Part shown: positions 1 through 19,058 of the stretch, piece after piece | How the letters are laid out: each line of letters opens with the position of its first letter | Numbering within the stretch: position 1 is the stretch's first letter | DNA from: Promethearchaeota archaeon | Lineage (GTDB): Archaea > Asgardarchaeota > Lokiarchaeia > Sigyniarchaeales > SOKP01 | DNA: 19,058 bases | Assembly (NCBI GenBank): GCA_048941265.1 | Contig: JBHLNT010000074.1 | Span: forward strand, 1 to 19,058 | Direction: 5' to 3' | The notes under the pieces: model-generated | What the model saw: only the letters and a program-made list of their open reading frames with translations | What the model was told of the DNA's origin: nothing | Database searches by the model: none | Position numbers and translations under genes: made by a program

Positions 1-145
1 AATCATTATTTTTGTTGACTATATAAACTATATAGATCTAATAAAATATATAGATAAAATATATAATATATAACGATCCCATTTAATAAAAGAATAATAG
101 AATATAATATCTTAAATTAAGACTAGATCAAAGAGGAGGTTTTAT

Positions 146-1186: not shown

Positions 1187-1431
1187 CTTTTTTTAAAAAA
1201 AATTTATTATTTCAATATTTAACACTTTTTCTTATTTGGTTAAATATAAGAATTTAAAATATTATTATGTTGACAGATCGGTTGATTATCTATTTCATTT
1301 AATATGGTAAATATATAAAATATATATACTATATAAGAAACTCCTTAAAGACTAATTGATCTAATTTTAAATAATAACTATTTGAAAAATTATCAAAATT
1401 ACACATTTGATATTCATAGGATTTCAATGAA

Positions 1432-2493: not shown

Positions 2494-2599
2494 AAAACAG
2501 ATATTCTTTTTTTCTCATTTTTTGAATTTTTTTGACAATGTTTTAATTTTCATTTTAGCGATTTATATTAGAAATAATTCAGGTTTAAAGTTTCTTTAG

Positions 2600-3703: not shown

Positions 3704-3886
3704 TGAACATTCACACTTTTCTTATTTCTTTTAATGTAATTTTGTGAAAATTTATATTTATAATTTAACAGATTATAGATAGAATAAAAAATTTTTACGA
3801 ATCTAATGCCTATATAAATAGGAATAAATTCATAAAATCCATAGATTTTTCAATACTATGGTTTGAATTAAAAATATTATTTATAA

Positions 3887-4327
3887 TTGATCAAAATGGA
3901 AGATGGTCTTTTAAAAGAATTACTCAATGTTGAGGATTCCATTGAATTAAAAGTAAGATTTAATGATATAGACGCTATGGGAGTAGTCCATTTCAAAAAA
4001 TATTTGGAATATTTTGATGATGGTTTTATAAGTTTTATGAATAATATACAAGATCCTCTAGCCGCTGAAAACCTACTTAAAAGTGGAATTGTATTTCCTG
4101 TCAAAAAAGTTAATATAGAATATGAAATATCTGCTGAATTTGGAGATCATGTAATCGTAAAAACACATATAAAAAATATTGGAGAAACATCGATTTCTTT
4201 TTTTCATGATATTTATCGTGAATCTGATAATGCTTTATTAGCGAAAATAATATGTGATAGATATATAATGGACTTAAAATCTAATAAATTAATTAATGTC
4301 AAGCAATTTTTTAGTAAATTTGTTTAA
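3887..4327 (+). CDS. Acyl-CoA thioesterase, 4HBT/YbgC hotdog family
   Basis: VRFNDIDAMGVVHFKKYLEYFD matches the YbgC/4HBT signature; length 146 aa. Confidence 0.88.
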   Translation: MIKMEDGLLKELLNVEDSIELKVRFNDIDAMGVVHFKKYLEYFDDGFISFMNNIQDPLAAENLLKSGIVFPVKKVNIEYEISAEFGDHVIVKTHIKNIGETSISFFHDIYRESDNALLAKIICDRYIMDLKSNKLINVKQFFSKFV

Positions 4328-4372
4328 ATAAATCTAAGCAATGAGTAAAAAAATTAATAGAACGAGCTAATA

Positions 4373-5026
4373 TCACGCATTTTTGGGAGGAATAATTCTA
4401 TTGATTAATTGTCTTCCGCATTCAGTAAAACTTCGATAAACGTTTTTTCTCATATCATATAGAGCACAAGTCTCATAAATTATAGGATTATAATTATGTA
4501 ATTCATTACCAAGTTCAAACCAAAGTCCCTCATCTTTAAGGACTTGTAAAAATTCTGCCTCCCCGATAACATCTTTGAGATCTTGTTTATTCAACATCAC
4601 AATCAAAGGGAGTTCTTTTATTAATTTACCTTTTGCGATATTTTTTAATTCTTTTAATGCTTCAATGTTATCTTCAAAAAATTTAGTCTGGGAATCAACA
4701 ACTAAAATAACTCCATCCGTTCCAAGAAAGATTTTCTCTCTTAAAGCGGAAAAGCTACTTTGCCCGGCAACTGTCCAAATGTGATAAAAAACTTGTCTTT
4801 GTTTTTTAGATTGAAAAACACCTCTGTCAAAATATAGAGTAGCTCCGCTTGCTCTCTCAATCTTTGTTAGAGTCCCCACTGGAATAACATCCTTGTTTTG
4901 TTCTTTTGTTAATCGATACAGGGTATCAACTATGGTTGTCTTTCCAGAACTATGCATCCCCCAGTAGAGGATTTTTATATATATTTTATTATCTTCCGTT
5001 ATTTGAACCAAATTATACCTCACCAA
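4373..5026 (-). CDS. Small GTPase, MglA/Arf-like (probable true start TTG at 5011)
   Basis: G1 GMHSSGKTT, switch I TLYFD, MglA-type G3 TVAGQ, G4 NKQD, G5 TCAL. SD-like GGTGAGG lies 6 nt before the TTG at 5011. Confidence 0.88.
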   Translation of the reverse strand: MVRYNLVQITEDNKIYIKILYWGMHSSGKTTIVDTLYRLTKEQNKDVIPVGTLTKIERASGATLYFDRGVFQSKKQRQVFYHIWTVAGQSSFSALREKIFLGTDGVILVVDSQTKFFEDNIEALKELKNIAKGKLIKELPLIVMLNKQDLKDVIGEAEFLQVLKDEGLWFELGNELHNYNPIIYETCALYDMRKNVYRSFTECGRQLINRIIPPKNA

Positions 5027-5268
5027 TTGGGGACAAAAGTTTCGAGGAGACCATTAACTTTTTGATGATAATGGGCTTTTTGGTTTTACACTCCTCATAT
5101 CTAATTGTACAATAATAATCAATCTTAGATATAATTAATATTGCTCTCTGATATTTATAACTTATTCTTTAAGAAATTAGATATTTCTCATTTAGAATCG
5201 TTGAAATATTTTTCATAGAACTCAATAATTTTGACAATCCTTTATAAGCTTATAAAAAAGAAAGAGAT

Positions 5269-6378
5269 TTAATTCGTCGTGATTTTCGGGGGTGGAACAT
5301 ATACTTCTCTATTTCCAGTTCTCTTTAAATTAATAGCACTCTCAGGACAATGATGAGCACACACCCCACATCCAATACATTTATTTATATCGACAACAGC
5401 AATGGTATCTTCTAAATCTATTGCTTCCATGGGACATTTTTCAACACAGGTTCCGCAACCTATACATTCTGAATCATTTACTTGTGCTAAATAACTGGTA
5501 TAACAATGATATGGTGAGATCCCTCCATAGTACATTTGAAAAATACCGCAACAACATTTACAACAATTACAGATTGCTTCTTCTTCTAATTCTGGTTTTA
5601 AATGTACATGAAACGCCTTATGTACAAGTCCCTCATCTTCAGATAATTTTAAAATCCTTTTTGCTTCATCTTTGCCGATGGGTTCTCCAAATTTATGCTC
5701 AATTACAAACTGTGCACTTTTACCAAATAATAGGCAGTTTGTCCTTTCTTGCGTGATTTTACATGGATCATCTAAAAGATCTTTTTCATGTCGACAATAA
5801 CAATGAGTATAAGCAATATCTTCATATTTATCTATGATTTTTGACACTTCTTCATATGGAAGGATTTGTTCTTCTGGAAGTTCTTCAATTTTCTCTTCAA
5901 CAGGGACAATTCGAGTTACAGGTGGAAAATTTTTAAATCCTTTCACAACAGTTTCATAGTTTTTCTGTGTCACCTCACTCATTCCTCTAAATAATTTGTC
6001 GAACGCTTTTGCTAATTTTTTTTGTTTCTCTCCTGTTTCTCCCCTATTTAATGTATATTCAAACATTCCAGGGAAAGGACCAAGAAGGCGATAAACTTTT
6101 ATCCCTGTTCTTCTACTAGTTGTACCAACTACAATTCCACCATCCATTAAATCATTTAACATCGTATTTAAGGAAGTATCATCCAAATCAATCTTTTCTT
6201 TTACTTGATCAATGCTTAAGCTTGGTTTTCTATTAAATACTTTAATAATAAATTGAGCTTGTGGTTCTGTCATTATTATTTGTAATAATTCAATAAGATT
6301 CTCATTAATTGGCATTGGCATTTGACCTGCTTTAGCAACAGTTCTTGCTGCTTTATACCATAATTGCTCCTCAGACAT
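5269..6378 (-). CDS. 4Fe-4S dicluster ferredoxin-domain protein with extra Cys cluster
   Basis: C-terminal CIGCGTCVEKCP and CIGCGVCAHHCP; central CYCRH and ICNCCKCCC motifs. Confidence 0.88.
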   Translation of the reverse strand: MSEEQLWYKAARTVAKAGQMPMPINENLIELLQIIMTEPQAQFIIKVFNRKPSLSIDQVKEKIDLDDTSLNTMLNDLMDGGIVVGTTSRRTGIKVYRLLGPFPGMFEYTLNRGETGEKQKKLAKAFDKLFRGMSEVTQKNYETVVKGFKNFPPVTRIVPVEEKIEELPEEQILPYEEVSKIIDKYEDIAYTHCYCRHEKDLLDDPCKITQERTNCLLFGKSAQFVIEHKFGEPIGKDEAKRILKLSEDEGLVHKAFHVHLKPELEEEAICNCCKCCCGIFQMYYGGISPYHCYTSYLAQVNDSECIGCGTCVEKCPMEAIDLEDTIAVVDINKCIGCGVCAHHCPESAINLKRTGNREVYVPPPKITTN

Positions 6379-6587
6379 TTTTTATCCTTTATTTAGTAAT
6401 TTTCGAAATTAAAATTGTTGCCATAATAAAATAAGCATAATTTAATTATCTTATGTAAGAGTTTAGTAAGAAAATAATAGAATTCAGTCGGACTTGAAAA
6501 ACCAAAAGTAAATTAAGTTTAAAAATACATACATCTAATATTTAAAAAACAAATTCGATTTTTTAAAAAATATTTTAGGTATTTAAT

Positions 6588-7979
6588 ATGGAGAATATTG
6601 TACATTCAAAAAGTAGTATGGCATCCTATGGATGTGCTAAAGCATTGAATGAATTTTTCAATATGGCATTTATGGCTTTTGGTTTCTTTTTTTATGAGAC
6701 AGAGATTGGTTTAAACGTCTGGTATGTTGGACTTGGCTTTATCATCTTTGCTATATGGAATGCGATTAATGACCCTCTAGTGGGATATTTAACTGATCGT
6801 CCATTCAAATTTACAAGGAAATTGGGTAGAAGATTTCCATGGATAATGCTCGGAGGAACTTGCTGGATCTTTAGTTATATTCTCATCTTCATTCCACCTA
6901 ATGTCAATCCAAAATCAGGAGCTTGGATCATATTTTCATGGCTCGTTGCTGCTACTTGTCTTTATGATTTATTTGCTTCAATATTTTTTGTGAATTTTGC
7001 CGCTCTTTTCCCTGATAAGTTCCGTTCAGTAGAAGAACGCAGGAAGGTTAACGCGATCGCTACCCCAATAGGAATTTTGGGCATTGTCACTGGAGGAATT
7101 GTACCACCGCTTTTTATTGAATTTGGAAACACCACTTCGTATATTATCCAAGCGGGTATGATGATTATTATTGCTCTCATTATTTTAGCGCTCTCTATTC
7201 CTGGTTGCCGTGATGAAAAAGTAATTGTCGAACGCTACCTCACAACATTTGAAACAAGGAAAGTAGAAGAAGAGTCATTTTTTAAGTCCTTAAGAGTTGC
7301 CATGAAACAAAAATCCTTTGTGTACTTTATCCTTGCATACCTTTGTTATCAAACTACTACAACGCTTATGCAAACATCTGTTTCTTATGTTATACGATTT
7401 ATTTTAAGATTGCCGGCAACTTCCATGATTTTTATAATGTTAGCACTTCTTGTAGGAGCAGTTATTTCTATTCCTATCTGGATATATTTAGCAAATAAGA
7501 CAAATGACAATAGAAAAATAATAATGACCGCTGGAGCATTGATGGTGATAGCTACAGCTCCATTGATATTCCTAGATAATTATATTGCCATTATTATCGC
7601 AATGTTTCTATGGGGTTTATGTTTCGGAGGTTATTGGGTAATGTTAGCACCTGTTTTAGCTGATGTGATTGATGAGTCCGTAGTAAGAACAGGTAAACGC
7701 GAAGAAGGTGTATATAATGGATTTCAGCAATTCTTTGGGCGCCTTTCTTTTCTCTTTTCTGCTCTTTCCATTGCAATAGTTCATACACTCACAGGATTTA
7801 AAGAAGGAGCTAAACCAGAAGCTCAAACTACTCTCGCAATAATCGGAATTCATATCCATTTTGGGTTAATCCCGATGCTTTTTATGATTGTATCTGTTTT
7901 CCTCTTATGGAAAGGGTATGACCTAGTTCCAGAAAAAGTAAAAGCCAATCAAGAAAAAATCAAGGAAATGGGTCTTTAA
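6588..7979 (+). CDS. MFS transporter, glycoside-pentoside-hexuronide (MelB/GPH) family
   Basis: About 12 hydrophobic segments; WNAINDPLVGYLTD, GRRFPW, LADVIDE and KREEGVY motifs. Confidence 0.9.
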   Translation: MENIVHSKSSMASYGCAKALNEFFNMAFMAFGFFFYETEIGLNVWYVGLGFIIFAIWNAINDPLVGYLTDRPFKFTRKLGRRFPWIMLGGTCWIFSYILIFIPPNVNPKSGAWIIFSWLVAATCLYDLFASIFFVNFAALFPDKFRSVEERRKVNAIATPIGILGIVTGGIVPPLFIEFGNTTSYIIQAGMMIIIALIILALSIPGCRDEKVIVERYLTTFETRKVEEESFFKSLRVAMKQKSFVYFILAYLCYQTTTTLMQTSVSYVIRFILRLPATSMIFIMLALLVGAVISIPIWIYLANKTNDNRKIIMTAGALMVIATAPLIFLDNYIAIIIAMFLWGLCFGGYWVMLAPVLADVIDESVVRTGKREEGVYNGFQQFFGRLSFLFSALSIAIVHTLTGFKEGAKPEAQTTLAIIGIHIHFGLIPMLFMIVSVFLLWKGYDLVPEKVKANQEKIKEMGL

Positions 7980-7998
7980 ATAAAAACTTAATATCTAA

Positions 7999-8020
7999 AT
8001 CTTTTTTTTTCTCTTTTTCC
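7999..8020 (+). terminator. Oligo-T archaeal terminator candidate after the MFS gene
   Basis: T-rich tract (cttttttttt ctctttttcc) about 20 nt after the stop codon. Confidence 0.4.
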
Positions 8021-8140
8021 TTATAAATTATTAACTATATTAAGTAAAAAAATATATTTTCTAGGATTAATATTAAAAAGATGCTATTATAATGGTTCAA
8101 TTTAATTTAACCGTTCAAAAAAATATTAGTTTGAGATACT

Positions 8141-9202
8141 ATGAGATATATTGAATATCAAATTGTTATAGGGGATTCCCCCCCTGGAGTAATGCTTAAT
8201 GATTTAAGAAATTTAGCGCATGTTGAATATTATGTATCAGATGAAATACCTACTGAAAAGGATATTGAACAAAATCAAAAGGCTTTATTTCCGAAAGGTA
8301 TTATCCACCACCTTCCCCAAGAGAGTTATGTTTGGAATTTTTCATTAGTGTATAGGGAAGAAAATTTTGATATAATCAAATGGAAAACTTCATTTGCTTG
8401 GAAAACAATCGATAAAACTGGTGATTACAATCAAATTGAAGCTAATAAGGCTTTATTTATTGGAGCCACTGCAGGAATATTTTTTATTATGATAGATGAG
8501 GAAATTTATGAGAATTTTAATAAACTTGCAGATATGATGGACATTTTTATAGAAAAAACTGATGAAAATGCCCCATTTATAGTATACGGATTGATTGAAA
8601 ACAAGCAAAAAGTTGCGGAATTAAAGGAAAATGAAGAATTATTAAAAAATGTAGCAGATGTTAAAAAATGGGTTACCACTCACAAAGGTGAATTTCGTAT
8701 GGAAATTTTAAAAGAGATTAAATCTAATCCAATATCTCTTATCAATGATTATTCTCATTTTATTCTTACAGCACGAAAATCCTATTATCCTAAGCTTAAA
8801 TTAGGTGAAGTTCATTATTTAGATTATGATGATTTAATCGCATGGAAAGGAATTGAAAATTCATTAGTAGAGCATACTGATAAAAATCAAACAATTGATC
8901 AACTAATTTTTAACTATTTAAAAAATATTGATTTCCAAGAGGAAAAAATTGAAACCATTACTGCCGTGAAACTCCAAGATGATAAACAACCTCTAAAAGA
9001 TGTTATCGAACCTCGTCCCTTAAAAATGAAGAAAATCATTAAAGAAATTCAAAAAACAATTAGACGAACTTGCCCCAATTGTGGAAATAACAATCGTAAA
9101 ATGATTCGTGAAGTAATAGATAGAGAGAATATTATTATGGAAAATCCCAATGTCTATGGTTTGAAGTTTACGTGCGGTAAATGTGGTTTCGAGTGGAAAT
9201 AA
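8141..9202 (+). CDS. Hypothetical protein: probable degenerate small-GTPase-like fold plus C-terminal Zn ribbon
   Basis: IVIGDSPPGV in a P-loop-like position; ALFIGATAGIFFI...ENFNKL...APFIVYG follows the Rab beta4-alpha3-beta5 pattern. C-terminal CPNC...CGKC zinc ribbon. Confidence 0.6.
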   Translation: MRYIEYQIVIGDSPPGVMLNDLRNLAHVEYYVSDEIPTEKDIEQNQKALFPKGIIHHLPQESYVWNFSLVYREENFDIIKWKTSFAWKTIDKTGDYNQIEANKALFIGATAGIFFIMIDEEIYENFNKLADMMDIFIEKTDENAPFIVYGLIENKQKVAELKENEELLKNVADVKKWVTTHKGEFRMEILKEIKSNPISLINDYSHFILTARKSYYPKLKLGEVHYLDYDDLIAWKGIENSLVEHTDKNQTIDQLIFNYLKNIDFQEEKIETITAVKLQDDKQPLKDVIEPRPLKMKKIIKEIQKTIRRTCPNCGNNNRKMIREVIDRENIIMENPNVYGLKFTCGKCGFEWK

Positions 9203-9278
9203 TTCTTTAATGCAAAAAATTTTTGAAAGCTTTTGAATCTCTATAAAACGTGGATTAAATAGTTCTAGTTGCACATCA

Positions 9279-10016
9279 TTAAGGTTTAAATCTCCAGAAT
9301 CGATTCATCTGACCGTAATAGTCAAATAATGCATCTATACCCCTAATTTTAAGGTCAGTGTTGAGGCAAATTTTATTATGAAGAGCTCCTTCAGCAGGTA
9401 TCGCGGCAATCTCAGTAGCCAGTTTGTTAACTTCTTCTTCAAGTTTATCTCGAGGAACACTTATACTCACAAGTCCTATTTGTTCAGCTTCTTTTCCATT
9501 TATTCTTCTACCACTCATTAAAAGGTAACGTGCTTTTTTGACACCTAAATAAAGTTGCCAAAGAGGCATGCTTTGAGCCCCGCCCCATAACTGGGCAGGG
9601 TGTCCTAATATAGCATCTTCTGCCGCTACAGAGATATCGCATAGAAGCTGAAGATAACATCCCGCATCTGTACAATAACCATGAATTTGAGCTATAGTTG
9701 GTTTTGGGAAATTGAATATTCGTGGATATTTCGCATAAATTTTTTTATTTAGTATCTCATAGGAATTTTTATATTTCCAACCTCCTTCAGGTGGTATGAT
9801 ATAGTAGGATTCCTTAAGATCAAAACCTGAGCAAAAACTTTTACCGGCACCCTTTAACACTATTACTTTTGCCTTATTATCTGCTTCGGCATGATCAAAA
9901 ACGGCGTCTATGTCATCAAGTAACTGATAACTCAGAGCATTATGTTTTTCTGGTCTATTTAAAGTTATATATCCAATTTTCTTTTTTGATTCATAAAGAA
10001 CAGTTTCAAACTCCAT
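9279..10016 (-). CDS. Enoyl-CoA hydratase/isomerase (crotonase) family protein
   Basis: ITLNRPEKHNAL, FCSGFDL, PKPTIAQIHGYC, EAEQIGLV. SD GGGTGA precedes ATG at 10016; the ORF track extends to 10052. Confidence 0.88.
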   Translation of the reverse strand: MEFETVLYESKKKIGYITLNRPEKHNALSYQLLDDIDAVFDHAEADNKAKVIVLKGAGKSFCSGFDLKESYYIIPPEGGWKYKNSYEILNKKIYAKYPRIFNFPKPTIAQIHGYCTDAGCYLQLLCDISVAAEDAILGHPAQLWGGAQSMPLWQLYLGVKKARYLLMSGRRINGKEAEQIGLVSISVPRDKLEEEVNKLATEIAAIPAEGALHNKICLNTDLKIRGIDALFDYYGQMNRFWRFKP

Positions 10017-10187
10017 TTTATCACCCATTATTTTTTTATTTATAACTAACATTATCTCTCAACATATTTAAAAATTTGACAAACAGAAAGAGAATGATTG
10101 GATTATGAAATGGAAAAAAATTAGTATTCAAAAAATTTTTAAAAGTTAATTAATGATTAAGCTCACACTTTTTTAAAACTTATATTA

Positions 10188-11378
10188 TTGTTATTGGTGT
10201 TGAATATAAGAGTAAAATTTGCTGAAAGAATAGGTAGGCTGCCACCATATATATTTGCCGAAATAGAGCAATTAAAATTAGAAAAAAAAAAGCAAGGAAT
10301 TGATTTAATCCCGTTAGGTATTGGGGATCCTGATTTGACAACTCCAGAATTAATCCTAAATGAGCTTATTGAACAAGTTAAAGTTCCTGAAAATCAAAAT
10401 TATCCAACTAGTGCCGGAGAAGAGTTCTTTAGAGAAGCCGTGGCTAGATGGTGTAAAGTGAGATATGGTCTAAATTTAGATTTAAACAGACAAGTCACAA
10501 ACGTACTTGGAGGAAAAGAAGGAGTGGCCAATATTGCTAGGGCGTTTGTTAATCCTGGAGATATTGTTCTTTGCCCAAATCCGGGGTATCCTGTATATGA
10601 AAATGGTGCTACTAAATTATGTGATGGAAATCCTTACGTAATGCCATTAAAAAAAGAAAATAATTTTCTTCCTGATTTAGAAGCTATTAGCACAAAATTT
10701 CTGAAAAAAGCTAAATTTATGTATTTAAATTATCCAAACAATCCTACTGGGGCTATTGCATCGATGGATTATCTCAAAAAGGCAGTAGATTATGCTGAAG
10801 ACTATAACTTTTTTATAGTGTACGATAATCCCTATTCTGAATTTACTTATGGCGATTATATTGCTCCTAGCATACTGCAAATTAGTCAAGATCATCTTGA
10901 AATTTATAGTGCATCAAAAATGTTTAATATGACAGGCTTTAGGTGCGGATGGGCAATAGGAAACGCAGAAATTATTGATGGATTAAGAAAAGTGAAATCT
11001 CAAATAGATTCAGGTTGTCCTATATTTATCCAAAAAGCAGTCGTGAAGGGTTTAAACGAATATTCTTCAGAGAAGAAACCTGAGATTGTTGCAAAAACAA
11101 TGGAAGTTTATGAAAAGCGCAGAGATATATTTGTCGATGGTCTAAACAAAATGGGATGGAAAACTGAAAAACCTCAAGCAACTTTTTATATTTGGACGCA
11201 AATTCCAGAGGGAGAGAAAAATAGCATGGAATTTGTTAAAAAGTTAATAGATGTAGGAGTAGTTCTTACCCCTGGAATAGGTTTTGGTGAATATGGGGAA
11301 GGTTTTGTACGAATTGCCTTAACTCAACCAATTGAAAGGTTACAAGAAGCATTAATAAGAATAGAAAAAGTCATTTAG
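10188..11378 (+). CDS. dapL: PLP-dependent class I/II aminotransferase, probably LL-diaminopimelate aminotransferase
   Basis: LPPYIFAEI, LGIGDPD, NYPNNPTGA, YDNPYSE, PLP-lysine motif SASKMFNMTGFRCGW, TPGIGFGEYGEGFVRIAL. Substrate is inferred from family resemblance. Confidence 0.7.
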   Translation: MLLVLNIRVKFAERIGRLPPYIFAEIEQLKLEKKKQGIDLIPLGIGDPDLTTPELILNELIEQVKVPENQNYPTSAGEEFFREAVARWCKVRYGLNLDLNRQVTNVLGGKEGVANIARAFVNPGDIVLCPNPGYPVYENGATKLCDGNPYVMPLKKENNFLPDLEAISTKFLKKAKFMYLNYPNNPTGAIASMDYLKKAVDYAEDYNFFIVYDNPYSEFTYGDYIAPSILQISQDHLEIYSASKMFNMTGFRCGWAIGNAEIIDGLRKVKSQIDSGCPIFIQKAVVKGLNEYSSEKKPEIVAKTMEVYEKRRDIFVDGLNKMGWKTEKPQATFYIWTQIPEGEKNSMEFVKKLIDVGVVLTPGIGFGEYGEGFVRIALTQPIERLQEALIRIEKVI

Positions 11379-11400
11379 TACTTGTTAGAAAATTTTTCAT

Positions 11401-11586
11401 TTATTTGGATTTTTGTTTATATTTTTTCCATAGAAATCCCATTCGAATTTCCTCCTCTATTTCGATTTCTGCTGGCACATTATCAGACATATCGAATATA
11501 TTTATATAAGAAAACTCATTAAATGGTTTATCTTTTTCTTTTTCTTCTTTTTCATAAAAATCGGCTGTTAGTTCCATATAGACCAA
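11401..11586 (-). CDS. Small hypothetical protein (58-61 aa), acidic with basic C-terminus
   Basis: ORF track. Shares F-x-Y-x-N-x-F-D-x(6-7)-A-E with the neighbouring 45-aa ORF. Alternative ATG at 11577. Confidence 0.6.
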   Translation of the reverse strand: MVYMELTADFYEKEEKEKDKPFNEFSYINIFDMSDNVPAEIEIEEEIRMGFLWKKYKQKSK

Positions 11587-11819
11587 AACTTAATATTTTT
11601 TTAAAAAATAAAGCTAAATTTGCTGTTCAAATAACGTTATAAATTAAAAGTTAAACCAATTATATAAATCTTCTGATTAAATTATCTGAATAGGTATATA
11701 AATAAATCTGAATAATAAAATAAATAATAATTCTTATATATACCATCCAATTCTAGAAAATTTACATAATCAATAATATTTTTTTGAAACTATGGAAAAT
11801 AAATACAATTTCTAATTTA

Positions 11820-11957
11820 TTACCATGCTATTTCTTTATCAAAAAGATGACATTCAGCAGATATCGGAAATTTAGTAGTATCAAAAAAGTTACTATAATC
11901 AAATGGCTCTTCAATGATTTCCGGCTTAATAATATCCTCTTCACGAATGGTGGTCAT
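11820..11957 (-). CDS. 45-aa microprotein MTTIREEDIIKPEIIEEPFDYSNFFDTTKFPISAECHLFDKEIAW (not in ORF track)
   Basis: Hand translation; strong SD AAAGAGGTG ending 4 nt before ATG; motif shared with 11401-11586. Confidence 0.7.
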   Translation of the reverse strand: MTTIREEDIIKPEIIEEPFDYSNFFDTTKFPISAECHLFDKEIAW

Positions 11958-12184
11958 TCTACACCTCTTTTCTGTTTTAATTTTTTATCGATTTTAGACC
12001 TCTCAGCAGCAAATTACTCGAATATGACCACTTTCAAATAAATCACACGCGCCAAGCAAACAAATCCGTGAAAAATTTATAAGAAAGAGGTTAGATTCGC
12101 TTGCTTGATCTATAATACTACTACTAGTACTAATACGCCTAAAACGCGTAACAATGTATTTGATGTAGTAGTATTCGAAGTCAT
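11958..12184 (-). ncRNA. Candidate structured cis-regulatory leader RNA (three hairpins, closing stem, anti-SD)
   Basis: Perfect 11-bp stem 12114-12124/12165-12175. 15-bp stem 12053-12067/12093-12107 whose three mismatches are G.U only on the minus strand. G.U-rich stem 12022-12029/12041-12048. Begins about 25 nt downstream of a TATA box. Confidence 0.6.
12110..12184 (-). CDS. Putative leader peptide/uORF MTSNTTTSNTLLRVLGVLVLVVVL (24 aa)
   Basis: ATG at the predicted transcription start (leaderless), TAG at 12110-12112; 5 Thr, 6 Leu and 6 Val codons. Confidence 0.45.
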   Translation of the reverse strand: MTSNTTTSNTLLRVLGVLVLVVVL

Positions 12185-12208
12185 TATTATAAAATATTAT
12201 ATAATAGT

Positions 12209-12224
12209 TTTATATAAACTTTTT
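12209..12224 (-). promoter_or_regulatory. Archaeal BRE-TATA promoter (AAAAAG-TTTATATAAA)
   Basis: Purine-rich BRE-like run directly followed by a consensus TATA box, about 25 nt upstream of the structured leader/uORF. Confidence 0.6.
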
Positions 12225-12271
12225 GTTATTTTACGTAAGGTTAAAAGTATTGAGTATGTATATTAGTTTCA

Positions 12272-12457
12272 TTAAAGCAATGTGTATAATTTTATTATCC
12301 TTGATAATTTATCATCAACATCGTGCTTTAACTCAATAATTCCCTTTTTAGTTTTTTTATAATAATAAAGCAATTTGTCATATTCTTCCTTTTGCTTAGA
12401 GAGCGATACTACCTGGTAATCAAGCTCGTTTTTATCAATTTTAATTGCGATATTCAA
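12272..12457 (-). CDS. Small hypothetical, likely helical/coiled-coil protein (61 aa)
   Basis: ORF track; GAGGGAAG RBS-like sequence shortly upstream of TTG; same orientation as neighbouring microproteins. Confidence 0.55.
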   Translation of the reverse strand: MNIAIKIDKNELDYQVVSLSKQKEEYDKLLYYYKKTKKGIIELKHDVDDKLSRIIKLYTLL

Positions 12458-12528
12458 GTTAATCTTCCCTCAGTTCTATTCTTTTAAATTTTAAATTATA
12501 TATTTTAGAAAATATATTTAAATTAGGA

Positions 12529-12708
12529 TCAAAAACTTTTAATTTTCCAGTTTCTCATAAAATCTTTGAAATATTTATCTGAAATTCCAAGCGAATTGAT
12601 ATTTACATCGTTATTATTTATTTTATTCCTAAAATTTTCCTTTTGAATTTGATCTGTCTTTTTTCTGAAAGTTAATTGCCAATCAAAAAAAGAATTTGGT
12701 TTTGACAT
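12529..12708 (-). CDS. 59-aa microprotein MSKPNSFFDWQLTFRKKTDQIQKENFRNKINNNDVNINSLGISDKYFKDFMRNWKIKSF (not in ORF track), paralogue of 12909-13088
   Basis: Hand translation; gapless alignment with the upstream ORF gives 24/59 identities. Confidence 0.8.
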   Translation of the reverse strand: MSKPNSFFDWQLTFRKKTDQIQKENFRNKINNNDVNINSLGISDKYFKDFMRNWKIKSF

Positions 12709-12908
12709 TGATTTAAAATCGAATTTACATTTTTGATAAAATAATAAAATTAGTTTATAAACAACTTTGTTTTCAAAGTTAATATTCGTACTAAAAGAAC
12801 GGATTTTTTACGGAAATGTTAAATCGTAATTTATTATTTAAAAACCTTTATTTAGAGTGATTTGGAACAAATAATTCGATTTAAATGAAGGAAAATAAAT
12901 TTATGTGG

Positions 12909-13088
12909 TTAAAGATTTTTTTCTTTCCATTTTTTCATAAAATTTTTATATATATTCTCATCAATTCCAAGAGAATTAACTTCTTTTTTATTTGTTATTC
13001 TCATTATCTTAATTTCGGAATTGTGATTTAATTGAGACTTTTTACGAAAATCCAATTCCCAATCAAAATAAGAAAGTGCTTTTGACAT
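12909..13088 (-). CDS. 59-aa microprotein MSKALSYFDWELDFRKK...NSLGIDENIYKNFMKKWKEKNL, paralogue of 12529-12708
   Basis: ORF track gives 13094; the ATG at 13088 aligns with the paralogue start. Conserved blocks SxFDWxLxFRKK and NSLGI...KxFMxxWK. Confidence 0.8.
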   Translation of the reverse strand: MSKALSYFDWELDFRKKSQLNHNSEIKIMRITNKKEVNSLGIDENIYKNFMKKWKEKNL

Positions 13089-13166
13089 GATCAAAATACT
13101 ATCTTATTCAACTATAAATCCCAAGAGGGTAAAAATTTTCTAATACCTAATTTTTAGGGAATATTC

Positions 13167-13176
13167 AAAAAAAAAA
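13167..13176 (-). terminator. Oligo-T terminator candidate after polB2
   Basis: Run of 10 T on the minus strand about 30 nt after the polymerase stop codon. Confidence 0.5.
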
Positions 13177-13205
13177 CCTGAATCAAAATCTTAAACCATT
13201 CGGAA

Positions 13206-15611
13206 TCAACTTAAATAACATGAAAGGTCTTTTTGACTCGATTTTCGATTAGCACGAGACTTCAATCGCTCTTCAAGTTCAGGAAACTCAAATGGGAATA
13301 TGTTTTGAAACGCCCTTTTTAATAACTCAATGTATTTTTTTTTATCGTACTGATGTTTTTTCTTGTCATACCAATCTGAAAGGATTACTTTCTTCTCTGG
13401 AAAATCGGGATCTGCCTCTGCATTCAAAATAATATATCTAACATTTTTTCCGGGAGTCGCCATGAATCCCGCTTGTTCTAATTGTTTTGCAGCCACTGCC
13501 TGATAGGAGTTTACCTTATATTTCGAAGGAGTTCTGGAGATTCGTTGACGAATAGTGAGTTCATCCTTTGAAATTTTGCCACTTTCAATTTTATCAGCAT
13601 ATTTGAAAAGGGTTTTCACAGCATTAGGTATTGTTTCCATGAATTCCTTTACAGAAGTTGCACTTTTAAAGATATCTATAAAAGCATATTGAGCTTTTTT
13701 GACTATTTTAGGGATATCTCTTCGTCGCACCTCAATTCCTCTTACCTTCGTTTCACCATCAGCTTTAATGCCCCAATAATGACTGAGAGCTGGAACATTA
13801 GGTTCTGCTTGAGAAGGAAGAAAAACAATGATATTAAATCTTCCCTCCCAGCTCATAGGAATATTTGTTTCCTCGGTGATTCGATTGGCAATTTCTTTTG
13901 TTACTCTTTCGAATTCTTCGGGAGATCTCCCTAAAGTATCTTGAATATAGATCGAATCCACAATTCCATGAATAATTCGACATCCATAGAATTCTGCTAT
14001 CTCTGCTGTGCGCATAATGAATTCGCGAGCAAATGCACAAACCGTTTGATGTGCTTCAATTTTTCCGAATCGAGCGTTTTTAAATCCTAGATACCCAAAG
14101 CTTACCACGAGCACCCATTTTAGCGCTATGTCAGTGAATTTATATCTGAGATCCCCAGTCCTTCTTACATGTTTCTTGCATTGCAATCTTTTGGTCAATG
14201 GTAAACTAATCGACTTTGAAATTATGCCTTCTCTTTTTGAACATATGTGAAAATTTAATCCTGGCACTTTTATACCCGTTCCATCATCTTTGCAACATTT
14301 GCAATTAATAGTTTCTGAAGAAATATTATAATTTGCCATTAAAGAGGGATACATTGAAGAGAAATCTAGTTCGACTACTTGATCGAAAACCCCGATTAAT
14401 GGCTCGAATATATGTCCCCCTCGATCACCTCTGATTAAATCAATACCATTCCGAAATCCTTCAGGACTTTTCTTAAAAGGAGGGATAAGATGATCAAGTT
14501 TATAGGCGTTATAGTATTGGATTGATTGAAGTGCACCGCCAATTGTAATTCTACATAATCTTTGTAGCGGCACTCGAGAGATGCGAGCAACTTCAATCAC
14601 TCCAGGAATGTTTCCTTCGCTAAAATGCAAGCTCCCGTAGGTTGTTGTGTCCAAATGGAATCGTCCAGTAAAATACACTTGTGTTTTTGATCGTCGTCTA
14701 ATTATTCCGTAGGACATATAATGATCTGAACCTCCTGAAAGCTCAAAAATGCAGTTCTTTAACGGTGTTTTTGTTCGAGAAAGATATAACTCCTTCGATA
14801 CATGATTTACTGACGCTCGAGCTGCCAGATAGGGGAAAATAAACTCATCACCGCCTTGTGTAAGAATAATGTCAGGATCGCGTTTTTCGATTAACTTACT
14901 GATTGCCTTTAAAGTCTCTGCTTCATCAGCTTCATCGATAAGAATCTTCCTTCTTCTTAGCCCATCGGCTCGAGGGATGTTGTTTCGCTTGTCTTTTTCA
15001 ACAATACTAATTTCAGCATAAGCAAGCGGATCATTGTAATAAGATCTGAGTCCCCGCTGCTGGATTTTTACATCGAGCCATACAGCCTTAAGAGGAGGTA
15101 AATCGTAAAACAGTTTCTCGTTGTCATCTTTAAGCTCAAACGAGATCAAGCTCATTTTGATGCTTTTATCTTGCTTGTCTTTTTCAATTTTGACCTTAAA
15201 GCTACAAAAAGACATAGGGAATAAATCATTTATATAAAAATACATCTGAGAGATTGGTAAGTCAGTGTTATACAACGTAAAATGACCAATTTCGTCAATT
15301 TCTTTAATGACCTTTTTGAATTCTGAAGGTTTTGATACAGACACACCAAAAATTTTTGTTTTTTTATGATCCTCCAACCTAACAAACTTCTCACAAACCC
15401 TTACTTTTTTTACGTTAGGATGCGCCTCGATAATACTTTTTAATCTCTTCAAATCACTACCAATATTCTTCTTTGGAACAGCAAAAAATTCGGGGTAGAA
15501 TTCTTGAAATATCTCCAAGATCCTTTTCTCCCTTTTTATCCAAAGGATTATTCCATCGCTACACGTTGAAACATCTAAAAGCCAGCCATCAAATTGTTCG
15601 AAACAATCCAA
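13206..15611 (-). CDS. polB2: Family B DNA polymerase, archaeal PolB2 group (degenerate exonuclease)
   Basis: Motif A ELDFSSMYPS, motif B LKWVLVVSFGYLG, variant motif C HGIVDS instead of YGDTDS, KVRGIEVRRRD, degenerate Exo motifs (WLDVKI, TQGGDEFIFPYL), C-terminal PIP-like QKDLSCYL. Confidence 0.88.
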   Translation of the reverse strand: MDCFEQFDGWLLDVSTCSDGIILWIKREKRILEIFQEFYPEFFAVPKKNIGSDLKRLKSIIEAHPNVKKVRVCEKFVRLEDHKKTKIFGVSVSKPSEFKKVIKEIDEIGHFTLYNTDLPISQMYFYINDLFPMSFCSFKVKIEKDKQDKSIKMSLISFELKDDNEKLFYDLPPLKAVWLDVKIQQRGLRSYYNDPLAYAEISIVEKDKRNNIPRADGLRRRKILIDEADEAETLKAISKLIEKRDPDIILTQGGDEFIFPYLAARASVNHVSKELYLSRTKTPLKNCIFELSGGSDHYMSYGIIRRRSKTQVYFTGRFHLDTTTYGSLHFSEGNIPGVIEVARISRVPLQRLCRITIGGALQSIQYYNAYKLDHLIPPFKKSPEGFRNGIDLIRGDRGGHIFEPLIGVFDQVVELDFSSMYPSLMANYNISSETINCKCCKDDGTGIKVPGLNFHICSKREGIISKSISLPLTKRLQCKKHVRRTGDLRYKFTDIALKWVLVVSFGYLGFKNARFGKIEAHQTVCAFAREFIMRTAEIAEFYGCRIIHGIVDSIYIQDTLGRSPEEFERVTKEIANRITEETNIPMSWEGRFNIIVFLPSQAEPNVPALSHYWGIKADGETKVRGIEVRRRDIPKIVKKAQYAFIDIFKSATSVKEFMETIPNAVKTLFKYADKIESGKISKDELTIRQRISRTPSKYKVNSYQAVAAKQLEQAGFMATPGKNVRYIILNAEADPDFPEKKVILSDWYDKKKHQYDKKKYIELLKRAFQNIFPFEFPELEERLKSRANRKSSQKDLSCYLS

Positions 15612-15613
15612 TT

Positions 15614-15898
15614 CTATTCTTTTCCATTTATTTTTTCTTCCAGTTCCTTAACCTTTCTCTCTAACATCTCAATTTTCTTCTCCTGCTCAATAGCAAAAGA
15701 CATGAAAAGAATTTCAGAAAGCATGGGTCTCGCACTTAAACTCCCCGCATCAGCATGAATTCGCGCGAAATTCATTAACTTATTCAAAATGTCTTGCTCG
15801 TGAGGACGAAGTGCCCTTTTAAAATCTTTCCAGCTTTCTATTTCATGTTCCAAGGCAGGACGAAAAGAAGGTACCGTGCGACCCATAATAATAACCAA
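15614..15898 (-). CDS. PolB2-associated small helical protein (arCOG07300-like); probable ATG at MGRTVPS
   Basis: MGRTVPSFR...WKDFKRALR...ARIHADA...EQEKKI pattern typical of the gene preceding polB2; stop codon 2 nt from the polB2 start. Confidence 0.75.
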   Translation of the reverse strand: MVIIMGRTVPSFRPALEHEIESWKDFKRALRPHEQDILNKLMNFARIHADAGSLSARPMLSEILFMSFAIEQEKKIEMLERKVKELEEKINGKE

Positions 15899-15970
15899 AG
15901 AGATTAGTTAATTATCAATTTTAAAAGGGATTAGATCGAGAATTTTCTGATTTTCAATGATGTTCCTTCA

Positions 15971-17059
15971 TTATGTAAAGAATTGACTAATTAGGTTATC
16001 GGCTTTCCCGAACGGTTTTAATTGACCATTCCAATCCTCAAGATTCTCTCCTCCGAATAGTTTTTCAAATGATAAATGAAACATCTTTAACCGATATTTA
16101 AATTCGGAAAAAAGGCTTGATGTGATTAATATACATAATGTAGATATTCCATGAGAAAAGATTATATTTTTATCTCCGTGCGATATTTCTTTAAGATAAC
16201 CATTGCTAGATAAAATCTCTCTTAATATAACGTCAAATCCGCCAAATGCTCCGCTTATTAAATCTCCCTCTATGCTAATTTCTGATAATTTGAACTCATA
16301 ATGGTATATTAACCTAGATGATTTAAGATGGATTACTAAAAGGCGCTCCAACTTTACCATCCAATCTAGTTCGGATAAACTGGGTAATTTACTCCACGTC
16401 CATGTCATTAAAAGGCCTCCCACAATGATTAAGAGGCTGTTTATAACTAAAATATTCCAAATACCAAAATAGTAGAGGAATATATCAACCATTAAAAAAT
16501 TTGAAAATCCCACTAAACTTAAACCAATATAAAACAACTCTATGATTTTTGAACGTCTTATAATTTCAAAGGACCTGTATTTATTTAAAAATATTTTCGT
16601 AACCATTATCACAGGTACAACTATAAAAATATAAACAAAAACAATAGTAATAATATGAAAATACACAAGGAAACCTAAAAAAGGTGCTCCTATACCTGTA
16701 ATAATGGAGAGTAGAAAGACATTTTTTTCTTTTTCTTTAATAGAACCATGTAAATATTCGTCTAACTCTGTAAAAAATATAAAGCAATACATACCACATA
16801 AAAATAATGCGTTAATTACTATATAATACATTAAATGAGGTAACAGTTCAGGATATAAATGGGGAAATGCCATTAAATAATGAAAAAGCGCTTGGGTTAT
16901 AAGAAAGATTCCAAAACCGGTGGTTGTTGATAAAATGCTGGTTTCCCTTATTTTTTTCATTACTTGAAATGCCATAAAAAAAATGATAAGTACCGCAAAA
17001 AATCGTAATAAAAGAATTATATCGCGATTAATCCCGTATTCAATGATTTGAAGAAGCAT
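15971..17059 (-). CDS. Multi-pass (about 7 TM) membrane protein with C-terminal longin/roadblock-like domain
   Basis: About seven hydrophobic segments in residues 10-225, then LLVIHLKSSRLIY...DLISGAFGGFDVILREI...LKEISHGDKNIIF...FHLSFEKLF with longin-like beta-beta-alpha-beta-beta-beta-alpha pattern. Confidence 0.65.
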   Translation of the reverse strand: MLLQIIEYGINRDIILLLRFFAVLIIFFMAFQVMKKIRETSILSTTTGFGIFLITQALFHYLMAFPHLYPELLPHLMYYIVINALFLCGMYCFIFFTELDEYLHGSIKEKEKNVFLLSIITGIGAPFLGFLVYFHIITIVFVYIFIVVPVIMVTKIFLNKYRSFEIIRRSKIIELFYIGLSLVGFSNFLMVDIFLYYFGIWNILVINSLLIIVGGLLMTWTWSKLPSLSELDWMVKLERLLVIHLKSSRLIYHYEFKLSEISIEGDLISGAFGGFDVILREILSSNGYLKEISHGDKNIIFSHGISTLCILITSSLFSEFKYRLKMFHLSFEKLFGGENLEDWNGQLKPFGKADNLISQFFT

Positions 17060-17213
17060 AAATAAACTTGATATCGACCATCTGTTTGATTTATTTGAAA
17101 AAGTTTACTCTTATAAATCTATCTTAGTAAATTTAAAATATTTTTTAGAGATTCTAAATCTATTTTAACTATATCTCAAATATATTATAATAAGAATCTT
17201 CGAAGTTATAGGA

Positions 17214-17582
17214 ATGAAGGTTATGGCATATAAAATAATTGATTCGCTTTGTTATGTACCGACTGAGGAGGTTTTTATTGATTTATTGGTATCATTGCCT
17301 CCTCAAATGTCAAGATATTTAAAGGATGTATTTGATCCGAGAGTTGCTCCATTATTAGGTATAACTGCTGAAGAGCTTTATAACATGAAAATGTCTCTTA
17401 GTCCACATGAGCTTAGAAAAGCTGTTGAGCCTTTTTTGCCGAAGATTAGAAGATTAACGATGACGGTAGAAGAATTTGTAATACAACTTAATAAAATGGG
17501 AGTAGAAAAAGCGGTAATTTTTAATCTTGATGAACAAACACCAAGTGGAATAGCAGGACTTCCTAATGACTATTATAAATAA
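17214..17582 (+). pseudogene. N-terminal fragment of an amidohydrolase_2 (TIM barrel) family protein
   Basis: IIDSLCY start motif and MGVEKAVIF...PNDYY, then a stop at 122 aa followed by AT-rich sequence with no evident continuation. Confidence 0.55.
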
Positions 17583-17696
17583 ATTTCTTTTTGGATATAT
17601 TAACATTTATTTAAATTTAATAATTTAATTTCAAAATAAAAACAGTTTTAAAACCTCTAAGCGAATAATTAATAAAATACAAATAGTGCATTATTT

Positions 17697-18113
17697 ATGA
17701 GCGAAGATTTAAAAGAGTGGCATGCCCCTTGCGGGATTTACTGTAAAAGATGTCCTGGCGTGAAATTTTATAATTGTAAAGGATGTCGAGAGCAAAAGGG
17801 ACAAGTTTATAAGCTTCCTTTATGCAAAACTTATGAATGCGTGACAAGCAAAGGACATGATTTCTGTTATGAATGTGAAGATTTTCCGTGCGAAATGCTC
17901 CAGCCGATCGTGAATTTTGAGATATTTGCTCCTCACAATTCAAAAGTATATAATTCAATCATGATACAGAAGCTAGGATTAGATGAGTGGGATAAAATAT
18001 GCGAAGAAAAAACCACACTTTATTATCAGGGAAAAAAGGTTCAATATGGTGGAGATCTTCTTACCTTAGAGAAGAAAGATCCTAAGATGTACAAAAAGAA
18101 AAACAACAAATAA
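17697..18113 (+). CDS. DUF3795-like Cys-rich (Fe-S/Zn-binding) protein
   Basis: APCGIYCKRC...CKGCR...C...C...FCYECEDFPC pattern. Confidence 0.8.
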   Translation: MSEDLKEWHAPCGIYCKRCPGVKFYNCKGCREQKGQVYKLPLCKTYECVTSKGHDFCYECEDFPCEMLQPIVNFEIFAPHNSKVYNSIMIQKLGLDEWDKICEEKTTLYYQGKKVQYGGDLLTLEKKDPKMYKKKNNK

Positions 18114-18120
18114 AAACAAA

Positions 18121-19058
18121 TTAAATTATTATCTCTAAAAATTCATCGATTACTTCAGCTGTTCGATCAATTCTTCCCGATTTTTTAAGTTCTCTACCAA
18201 GGATATACGTATCAATTTCTAAAAAATCTAGACCAATTAATTCACATTTTTTTAATTCCATGAATGCCTTAATCACTCTTGCAGCATTCAAAATCAATTC
18301 TTTTTCAATACCTATAACATTCATAAATCGAGCTGCAAGAATTTCTTTAAATATCCCTACATCTACATCAAATGAGATGTAAACATAAGGCACTTTGTAC
18401 TCTTCTAAAGATTCTTTTAATTTCTTTACCATATCATTTTTATCATTTATTCCAGAAATAATTTTTGCGCCCTTCTCCTCAAAGAATTGATAATACTCTA
18501 CAAATTTCTTTACCCTTGAATCGTCTATAGAGCGATATTCCTTGCTAGGATAATCTTGACAACCAAAAACAATCAAATTTTCTGGTAATATAGTCCCATC
18601 TTGAATTAAATAATCCAAGAAAGAAGCACATGAATAGCTATCTTTTAATATAATAGAATTAACATCCATAGAGTCGAGTAATCCAGGAGAAAGTACATGA
18701 ATTTCCTTTTGATGTTCTTGCATATATTTTACTAAGTCTAACGAGACTTGAGCAGGAATAGCATCGAAGTGAGCGTCAAATATTACTATTAATATATTTT
18801 CCGGTCCATACTTCTTCGAAAGAGCACTCAAAACCCCCCCAGTTAAAGAATGATCCACCCCAATCATTAAGGGTATATCTGGTAATACTTTTCCTATAAC
18901 AAAATTCTCTAACTTTTTAGAAAGTGTTCTCACTGCCCCACTATTTACATATTCTTGATATTTAAAAGGATCCAAGAGAGGATAATCTTCAATATTAGGT
19001 TTAGGAGTTAACCAAGACTCGATTGAAAATTTCCCTATTTTGATATATTTTTCCTTAT
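18121..19058 (-). CDS. Arginase/ureohydrolase family protein, 5' end outside the window
   Basis: GVDHSLT, DAHFD, SFDVD and DFLEI motifs. The frame stays open from 18975 to the window edge (..KEKYIKIGKFSIESWLTPKPNIEDYPLLDPFKY). Confidence 0.8.
   Translation of the reverse strand, partial: KEKYIKIGKFSIESWLTPKPNIEDYPLLDPFKYQEYVNSGAVRTLSKKLENFVIGKVLPDIPLMIGVDHSLTGGVLSALSKKYGPENILIVIFDAHFDAIPAQVSLDLVKYMQEHQKEIHVLSPGLLDSMDVNSIILKDSYSCASFLDYLIQDGTILPENLIVFGCQDYPSKEYRSIDDSRVKKFVEYYQFFEEKGAKIISGINDKNDMVKKLKESLEEYKVPYVYISFDVDVGIFKEILAARFMNVIGIEKELILNAARVIKAFMELKKCELIGLDFLEIDTYILGRELKKSGRIDRTAEVIDEFLEIII

Follow-up and report, generated by a model that had tools for sequence, protein, structure and literature searches.

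A widespread family of folded leader RNAs in one Asgard family that looks like an archaeal counterpart of bacterial leader-peptide attenuators

The leader locus

We analysed a 19,058-nt stretch of a Promethearchaeota archaeon genome (assembly GCA_048941265.1, contig JBHLNT010000074.1, positions 1 to 19,058 of the forward strand; hereafter the window), in which a very small open reading frame (ORF) appears to form part of a structured leader RNA. The ORF occupies 12110..12184 on the minus strand, with 24 codons and a TAG stop. Read from 12184 to 12110 its codons are ATG ACT TCG AAT ACT ACT ACA ... GTA GTA GTA TTA TAG, which translate to MTSNTTTSNTLLRVLGVLVLVVVL*, and its frame is kept in homologues. 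The initial annotation had placed a Leu/Val-rich frame here, without stating its strand; translation bears out both the ORF and its run, with Leu or Val in 12 of the 14 final codons and GTA GTA GTA among them. An archaeal promoter, recognized from the sequence, lies just upstream (12211..12225, minus strand), with a B recognition element (BRE) rich in A at 12225-12219 and a TATA box, TTTATATA, at 12218-12211 that ends 26 nt before the ATG. The earlier proposal that the ORF begins at the transcription start site (TSS) agrees with this arrangement, from which a TSS a few bases 5' of the ATG is predicted.

Folding and covariation place two hairpins at this locus, both on the minus strand. Hairpin A (12114..12175) lies within the ORF and has an 11-bp stem, joining the 5' arm AAUACUACUAC at 12175-12165 (codons 4-7) to the 3' arm GUAGUAGUAUU at 12124-12114 (the last codons). 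Hairpin B (12052..12109) begins directly 3' of the stop, with arms at 12109-12093 and 12067-12052 and a loop of about 25 nt. The loop holds the 5' strand of a pseudoknot, ACCUCUUUC (12083..12091, minus strand), which by covariation pairs with 12035-12027 and is a U5 tract in most family members. Its partner bases belong to what we call the hub, GAAAGUGGUCAU (12024..12035, minus strand), recognized by its pairing capacity: 12035-12027 pair with the hairpin B loop, and the GGUCAU at 12029-12024 complements the AUGACU at the ORF's 5' end, giving helix P1. Taken alone, hairpin A of the window barely exceeds chance (minimum free energy -19.8 kcal/mol, z-score -2.31); 6 of 200 shuffled sequences fold at least as well, as does the plus strand, and a single sequence proves little.

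Two small genes follow on the minus strand, both read as ORFs. The first encodes a 45-aa acidic protein (MTTIREEDII...DKEIAW) at 11820..11957 and has a GAGGUG Shine-Dalgarno (SD) sequence; the second, at 11401..11586, encodes an acidic protein of about 58-61 aa (..ADFYE..PAEIEIEEEIRMGFL..) that is similar to small ..DYYKDW..PGEIE.. proteins found 3' of other leader copies. Pfam returned no family for either protein, and a protein atlas placed the 45-aa and 58-aa proteins in unnamed clusters only, with scores below 0.9. The initial annotation had remarked that no ilv genes lie downstream. This is correct for the window copy, which is followed by the 45-aa and 61-aa ORFs, and for that copy only: the genome holds two more, one on contig C41 before a leucyl-tRNA synthetase (LeuRS) gene and one on contig C266 before an ilvE-type branched-chain aminotransferase (BCAT) gene. 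A search of the whole window with 4227 Rfam families, among them leader, riboswitch and T-box models, gave no match at E <= 1.

Distribution, frame and fold of the family

The C41 copy came to light when the genome that holds the window, 5.0 Mb in 361 contigs, was searched. It has the same context around its ATG, a 25-codon ORF (MISNNNMKNSLSLQILSKVLLLLLL*), and a hairpin A in which A-U pairs take the place of C-G pairs, so that Thr/Val become Asn/Leu. A second hairpin, nearly identical to hairpin B of the window, lies directly 3' of its stop, and the LeuRS gene starts about 195 nt further downstream (identified by Pfam, and by NCBIfam leuS_bact with 645 bits against a cut-off of 548). DNA-level searching of 61 related genomes found the element in 19 of them and yielded 22 near-full-length loci, every one with an ORF of 20-30 codons and, by RNAfold, with hairpin B. 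Plain MAFFT alignment of these 22 sequences followed by RNAalifold gave no structure, the 5' arm of hairpin B being misaligned. A covariance model was therefore first built from eight well-aligned sequences, the 22 loci were re-aligned to it, and it was rebuilt as model R2, which matches the window over 12005..12196 of the minus strand (189.9 bits, E = 4.5e-35).

Within the window's family R2 detects the element in 124 of 135 genomes, in all 13 genera and in 30 of the 36 high-quality genomes, at 1-4 copies per genome and about 242 matches altogether. A class-wide sample gave matches in 115 of 126 genomes of the same family and in 0 of 24 genomes drawn from six other families of the class. In two complete genomes of sister family f2 (G050 and G055), neither the model nor inspection by eye found the leader upstream of LeuRS. 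The same two genomes have, 200-250 nt before an archaeal-type LeuRS (loci L271 and L272), a conserved short block ..CTTGGTGAAA..ATG.GTGA..ATTTTCTC.., which carries a very short ORF and may be another regulatory element. By sequence and predicted fold, the elements detected by R2 are a new structured RNA family outside Rfam. Locus-level counts below concern 150 of the roughly 242 matches, from 108 genomes (36 loci from the earlier searches and 114 added), with 92 weaker matches outside the set.

All 150 loci contain an ORF of 20-35 codons that runs from the conserved start (ATG in 149, TTG in one) and ends at hairpin B. Peptide length takes 13 values between 20 and 35 aa, and 145 of the peptides are distinct. 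The other two frames are interrupted: frame +1, in which the 3' arm of hairpin A reads TAG TAG, is free of stops in 0 of 150 loci and has 681 stops in total, and frame +2 is free of stops in 10 of 150. Given these stops and the 13 lengths, all length changes in the variable middle must have preserved the frame. The LeuRS leaders (69 distinct ORFs) add a codon-level signal. Leu is encoded at position -7 by CTC in 21, TTA in 11, CTT in seven and CTA in three, and at position -8 by TTA in 27, CTT in nine and TTG in six. As far as these sequences tell, Leu in LeuRS leaders is maintained by synonymous codons of both codon families, also outside the stem.

The initial annotation had cautioned that the ACT/GTA inverted repeat could by itself produce the Thr and Val runs, and had named loss of the ATG or frame beside a retained hairpin as what would speak against a leader peptide. 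The frame is kept at all 150 loci, with TTG in place of ATG at one, and the comparison of homologues that it had called for shows the conserved start and frame together with the synonymous Leu changes. The caution holds in part. Covariation of the stem from ACU/AGU to AAU/AUU does exchange TTT..VVV for NNN..LLL, so that part of the peptide follows from the RNA; survival of the frame through 13 lengths and synonymous Leu codons outside the stem do not follow from it. A stronger form of the same idea holds that the ORF is untranslated and arose by chance from an (ACU)n/(AGU)n inverted repeat within AT-rich DNA. The z-score of only -2.3 for the single hairpin would suit it, as would the presence of a Thr/Val-rich frame on the plus strand too, but a chance frame would not be expected to persist through 13 lengths in every one of the 150 loci, with its +1 neighbour always interrupted and its ATG at a fixed distance from a conserved promoter. 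On the sequence evidence this reading is close to refuted.

The juxtaposition of a repetitive codon run, a stop and a pseudoknot within 0-6 nt also resembles known recoding sites, at which readthrough or frameshifting would extend the peptide. No frame remains open past the stop, the median open length being 10 codons in frame 0, 22 in frame -1 and 12 in frame +1, and all three stop codons are used (TAA 79, TGA 51, TAG 20). We accordingly rejected recoding and give it practically no credence.

Pair counts were made on 100 of the 150 loci aligned to R2 (78 non-LeuRS and 22 of the 72 LeuRS loci; 102 matches including two tandem copies, 101 distinct rows). Both-side changes occur in 10 of the 11 pairs of hairpin A, with 91.9% of cells paired, in 10 of the 12 pairs of hairpin B, with 94.1% of cells paired, and in six of the nine pairs of the pseudoknot between ACCUCUUUC in the hairpin B loop and GAAAGAGGU downstream, with 83-87.5% of cells paired. 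For the structure as a whole the paired share of cells is 91.0%, compared with 37-54% when partners are slid; both-side changes affect 27 of 33 pairs, and 0 of 500 shuffles match. These alignments were fitted to R2 and so favour helices A and B, the pseudoknot and P1 lying outside the model. The full set agrees with the earlier result on 22 sequences, and an unbiased scan of all column pairs ranked hairpin B, hairpin A, the pseudoknot and P1 (six pairs), in that order, as its top four helices. Helix P1 joins (G)GUCAU, just 3' of the pseudoknot strand, to the 5'-terminal AUGAYY; it is 55-85% paired and shows little covariation. Pseudoknot and P1 have bases in common and are thus mutually exclusive. 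Frequent G-U pairs fit the ORF strand only.

The ORF and hairpin B are tightly juxtaposed: at 117 of the 150 loci, hairpin B has its first paired base between -3 and +4 nt relative to the stop codon's end. T-tracts of the kind that act as archaeal termination signals are frequent at the same place. Of the 150 loci, 130 have a run of at least five T in the first 60 nt 3' of the stop (median +21 nt, within the hairpin B loop), and 34 have one in the next 60 nt. The element contains no bacterial-type terminator made of a hairpin and a U-run; its U-tracts lie instead inside the loop. In the window's class, a second copy of the hairpin B 3' arm and hub can apparently be made out by eye further downstream; none was found in the LeuRS classes. 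The window and its close relatives also carry, as the reverse complement of the hairpin B loop, an antisense TATA-like box, TTTATAAG (12071-12085, plus strand), which could drive a transcript across the leader ORF.

Archaeal TATA boxes are centred about 26-27 nt before the start site. Aligned on the ATG, 147 loci (three of the 150 had too little upstream sequence) are almost without G and C at -34..-27, the TATA box, and A-rich at -41..-35, the BRE. From this fixed spacing we infer a TSS about 3-5 nt before the AUG, and hence a leaderless ORF. A co-oriented ORF begins within 260 nt of the leader in 148 of 150 loci. For LeuRS, the leader stop lies 107-199 nt before the gene's start (median 151; 68 of the 72 LeuRS loci, in which the start pattern was recognised), no positioned TATA box precedes the LeuRS ATG, and an SD-like motif does so in 12 of 68 loci only. 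The distances and the missing second TATA box make the element the 5' leader of the downstream mRNA. Together these comparisons support a conserved, frame-constrained leader ORF with a predicted leaderless start.

Downstream genes and codon runs

Downstream genes were assigned with Pfam for 99 ORFs of at least 100 aa, with NCBIfam for representatives, and by motif for two extra, truncated LeuRS loci. Leucine-tRNA ligase (LeuRS) follows 72 of the leaders, which have a mean Leu fraction of 0.31. An FrhB-like protein fused to a TrmB domain follows 18 (mean Ile 0.24), the 45-aa acidic protein of the window's class 16 (mean Leu 0.23, Val 0.23), the ..DYYKDW.. small protein 15 (mean Leu 0.06), the MEKEVLDKIE.. 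small protein 11 (mean Leu 0.23, Val 0.24), the ilvE-type BCAT five (mean Ala 0.24, Ile 0.15), an acyl-CoA dehydrogenase (ACAD) four (mean Val 0.29) and the ..DFYE.. small protein two (mean Leu 0.28), with other genes at the remaining seven loci. The small acidic protein families may deserve attention as the most frequent non-enzymatic targets of the leader.

Leader composition follows gene class within genomes. Among genomes with at least two classes, the LeuRS leader is the richest in Leu in 23 of 24, the FrhB-TrmB leader the richest in Ile in 14 of 14 and the BCAT leader the richest in Ala in five of five. The window's own genome conforms, with a Leu run in the LeuRS leader on C41 and an Ala/Ile/Val run in the leader on C266, whose BCAT scores 422.6 bits against an NCBIfam cut-off of 307. 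Leu-rich leaders precede bacterial-type and archaeal-type LeuRS alike. Genus g1 has the bacterial type (G000:C41, L002/L037), the window's genome having no archaeal-type LeuRS above cut-off, and other genera (L064, L031, L138, L093) have the archaeal type; the sequences suggest that the LeuRS gene was replaced behind a retained leader. Judged from sequence, then, the putative regulatory codons suit the controlled gene for Leu and LeuRS, and the fit is less clear in the other classes and in the window copy.

A divergent class of leaders (L129, L134, L135, L140, L141, L161-L165 and others), placed before ~60-aa ..ILDYYKDWDS.. proteins, encodes peptides such as MSFSNNTTTHWCRLHLGVVPVFIRSIIKRE that include His, Trp and Cys and have a charged tail, ..IRSIIKRE; the tail is also seen in L133.

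The length and placement of the hydrophobic runs bear on an alternative already raised by the initial annotation, a short type I toxin-like membrane peptide. More generally, the ORF could encode a functional small hydrophobic peptide (a membrane micro-protein or type I toxin), with the RNA structures controlling or stabilising its own mRNA and the downstream genes merely co-transcribed. Most leaders do have a hydrophobic end of 8-14 residues, their frame is strictly conserved, and the antisense TATA-like sequence inside the window's hairpin B loop would suit such a system. Yet the peptides are highly diverse, their hydrophobic stretch is below the usual length of a membrane helix, the class before the ..DYYKDW.. 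loci (and L133) ends in charged rather than hydrophobic residues, and the N- and C-terminal residues co-vary as the RNA stem requires, unlike those of a protein. The loci are, besides, syntenic and single-copy per gene class, lying before housekeeping genes such as LeuRS, and are neither patchy nor mobile. We consider a functional peptide improbable, and the toxin version in particular is poorly supported, with syntenic loci before housekeeping genes and one class with a charged tail.

A more serious competitor, although still an unlikely one, is a structured 5' RNA whose true sensor is hairpin B or the pseudoknot, binding a protein, a metabolite or a tRNA; the ORF would then be translated merely because the transcript starts with AUG, and would at most remodel or stabilise the RNA. 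Hairpin B, the pseudoknot and the hub are indeed the most conserved and best covarying parts, loop and hub resemble an anti-SD/SD pair, the gene set resembles a regulon that a trans-acting factor could control, and several peptide residues are set by the hairpin A stem. Such an RNA would leave unexplained why the frame is retained in 150 of 150 loci through 13 lengths, why 117 of 150 have the stop fixed against the foot of hairpin B, why LeuRS leaders retain Leu by way of synonymous codons from both families and why run composition differs between gene classes; Rfam riboswitch and T-box models, moreover, find no match.

Several neighbouring features were noted. Leader and small acidic protein form units that occur in tandem, two per locus, at L041 (G029:C14, 872-1066 and 1498-1697) and at L156/L159 (G015:C73); these tandem units adjoin a convergent LL-diaminopimelate-aminotransferase-like gene, which flanks the window copy too. 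Just 5' of the leader in the window lie two paralogous minus-strand ORFs of 59 and 61 aa (12529-12708 and 12909-13094) with the common motifs ..FDW(Q/E)L(T/D)FRKK.. and ..NSLGI(S/D).., and near this pair another 61-aa ORF (12272-12457); none of the three has a Pfam match, and orthologous loci of other genomes have different genes 5' of the leader. Elsewhere in the window are an Arf/Roc/Ras-like small GTPase typical of Asgard archaea (4373-5026, minus strand) and a 353-aa ORF (8141-9202, plus strand) for which Pfam gave no family and whose two C-terminal CxxC pairs (..CPNCG.., ..CGKCG..) suggest a zinc ribbon. ARAGORN found no tRNA or tmRNA gene in the window.

Proposed mechanism and comparison with known systems

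We favour, with somewhat better than even confidence, the reading in which a cis-acting leader RNA at the 5' end of the downstream mRNA has the ORF as its sensor, that is, a leader-peptide regulator sensed by the ribosome. Transcription would begin a few bases before the AUG, and ribosomes would load without an SD sequence and read the 20-35 codons. The last codons, a Leu/Val/Ile/Ala run, double as the 3' arm of hairpin A, and the stop touches the base of hairpin B. Because of this geometry, with the 3' arm of hairpin A made of the last four or so codons, a ribosome on the final codons or the stop must hold both hairpins open. A ribosome pausing on the final hydrophobic codons when the matching charged tRNA is scarce would thus keep A and B open, and its quick departure would let both refold. 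The U-rich loop of hairpin B pairs with the downstream GAAAGAGGUCAU, which can instead pair with the 5'-terminal AUG. The comparative evidence supports the sensing part of this scheme, and it supports the alternative pairings of loop, GAAAGAGGUCAU and AUG, as a structure, as the putative switch element.

The output is more conjectural. The fold state of hairpin B, pseudoknot and P1 would set how much RNA polymerase, or mRNA, continues into the gene; most probably, we infer, transcripts terminate prematurely or are cleaved at the U-tracts of the hairpin B loop. A stalled ribosome might shield these tracts from termination or cleavage, turning the gene on in starvation, which would suit LeuRS; or a closely following ribosome might prevent termination, which would suit the catabolic BCAT and ACAD. 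Two other routes were rejected. Classical alternative hairpins would need the ORF to pair with an arm of hairpin B, and it does so at shuffle level for either arm. Masking of the downstream ribosome-binding site (RBS) by the hairpin B loop fails as a general mechanism, LeuRS genes being mostly without SD, and is possible in the window's class.

A number of points weigh against the sensor reading, in addition to the bias of the alignments toward helices A and B. Over 117 loci, pairing of the ORF with the two arms of hairpin B has mean z-scores of 0.03 and 0.19, no better than shuffles, so that a bacterial-style 2:3 antiterminator is absent and the ribosome would have to act directly; the distances of 107-199 nt and the scarcity of SD-like motifs make RBS masking unlikely in its simple form. 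The hairpin A stem fixes part of the peptide (Thr/Val versus Asn/Leu). Because each gene class is a clade of orthologous loci, few independent events underlie the association of codon run with gene. Ile-rich leaders before FrhB-TrmB and Ala-rich leaders before BCAT have no obvious functional match, and the window copy, with its Val/Leu run, stands before two small acidic proteins without assigned function. The catabolic ACAD and BCAT would be expected to respond in the opposite direction to LeuRS. What is said here of the TSS, of ORF translation and of any short terminated RNA is prediction from DNA sequence. Finally, the element is missing from the complete genomes that were searched outside the family, so none of these is usable as a test system.

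The initial annotation's central proposal, ribosome-mediated attenuation in an archaeon, therefore stands in modified form. The conserved leader ORF, the covarying RNA, runs that follow gene class and the LeuRS and ilvE-type targets argue for it; the terminator/antiterminator pair of the bacterial type has no equivalent here. In the window's genome, sister copies would control LeuRS and BCAT. Extended to the whole Asgard family (Promethearchaeia), the proposal becomes a ribosome-read 'ribulon', in which Leu/Val/Ile/Ala runs report tRNA charging, and hairpin and pseudoknot control read-through into LeuRS, BCAT, acyl-CoA dehydrogenase, a TrmB-type regulator and small acidic proteins. That this is so, and is the first such attenuation in Archaea, we regard as an even bet.

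Leader-peptide attenuation is a textbook bacterial mechanism that relies on coupled transcription and translation, and to our knowledge it is not established in any archaeon. If the proposal is right, attenuation would here work on the archaeal, eukaryote-like transcription machinery, which has no hairpin terminators. A conserved family of about 240 copies, in the closest archaeal lineage to eukaryotes, would provide a concrete case of ribosome-sensed control that can be tested. Such a family would also bear on RNA-level control of an archaeal polymerase that terminates at U-tracts, on the regulation of amino-acid metabolism in amino-acid-fermenting Asgard archaea, and on how many unannotated archaeal small ORFs are sensors rather than proteins. 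Literature searches, mostly at the level of result listings, returned no description of this leader RNA or of archaeal leader-peptide attenuation. The sequences present a widespread, previously undescribed family of folded-RNA leaders in one Asgard family, located before LeuRS and branched-chain amino-acid genes, which looks like the first archaeal counterpart of the bacterial attenuators.

Those bacterial attenuators (ilv, leu, thr, his, trp, pheST) have a translated leader ORF rich in related amino acids and fold according to ribosome position; in pheST the controlled gene is that of an aminoacyl-tRNA synthetase. The family described here resembles them in having a leader ORF rich in gene-related amino acids, in a synthetase target as with pheST and in a proposed dependence of folding on ribosome position. 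It differs in lacking the 1:2, 2:3 and 3:4 alternative hairpins and a terminator of hairpin and U-run, in its predicted leaderless start, in its pseudoknot and in having no Rfam leader match. With T-box riboswitches it has in common aminoacyl-tRNA synthetase and branched-chain genes and the logic of sensing tRNA charging; unlike them, it matches no T-box model and has no specifier loop, the codons being read by the ribosome within an ORF. Type I toxin-antitoxin mRNAs are likewise highly structured, contain a short hydrophobic ORF and can pair their 5' end with an element further downstream, but the leaders are syntenic before housekeeping genes, their peptides are very variable and one class has a charged tail.

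The closest precedent is found in mycobacteria, where leaderless short ORFs encoding polycysteine serve as attenuators (Canestrari et al., bioRxiv 10.1101/834739). In both systems the first cistron is a leaderless short ORF in which codons for a single amino acid form a run that is related to the downstream genes; each genome has several loci of one design (a 'ribulon' in those authors' term), and RNA structure is proposed to be blocked when a ribosome stalls in the run (10.1101/834739). The leader here is archaeal (Asgard) and has no sequence homology to the bacterial one. In the mycobacterial system the structure keeps the next gene's RBS sequestered (10.1101/834739), whereas here the next start is 107-199 nt away and mostly without SD, and the leader combines two hairpins, in a conserved fold, with a pseudoknot and an element that can pair with the AUG.

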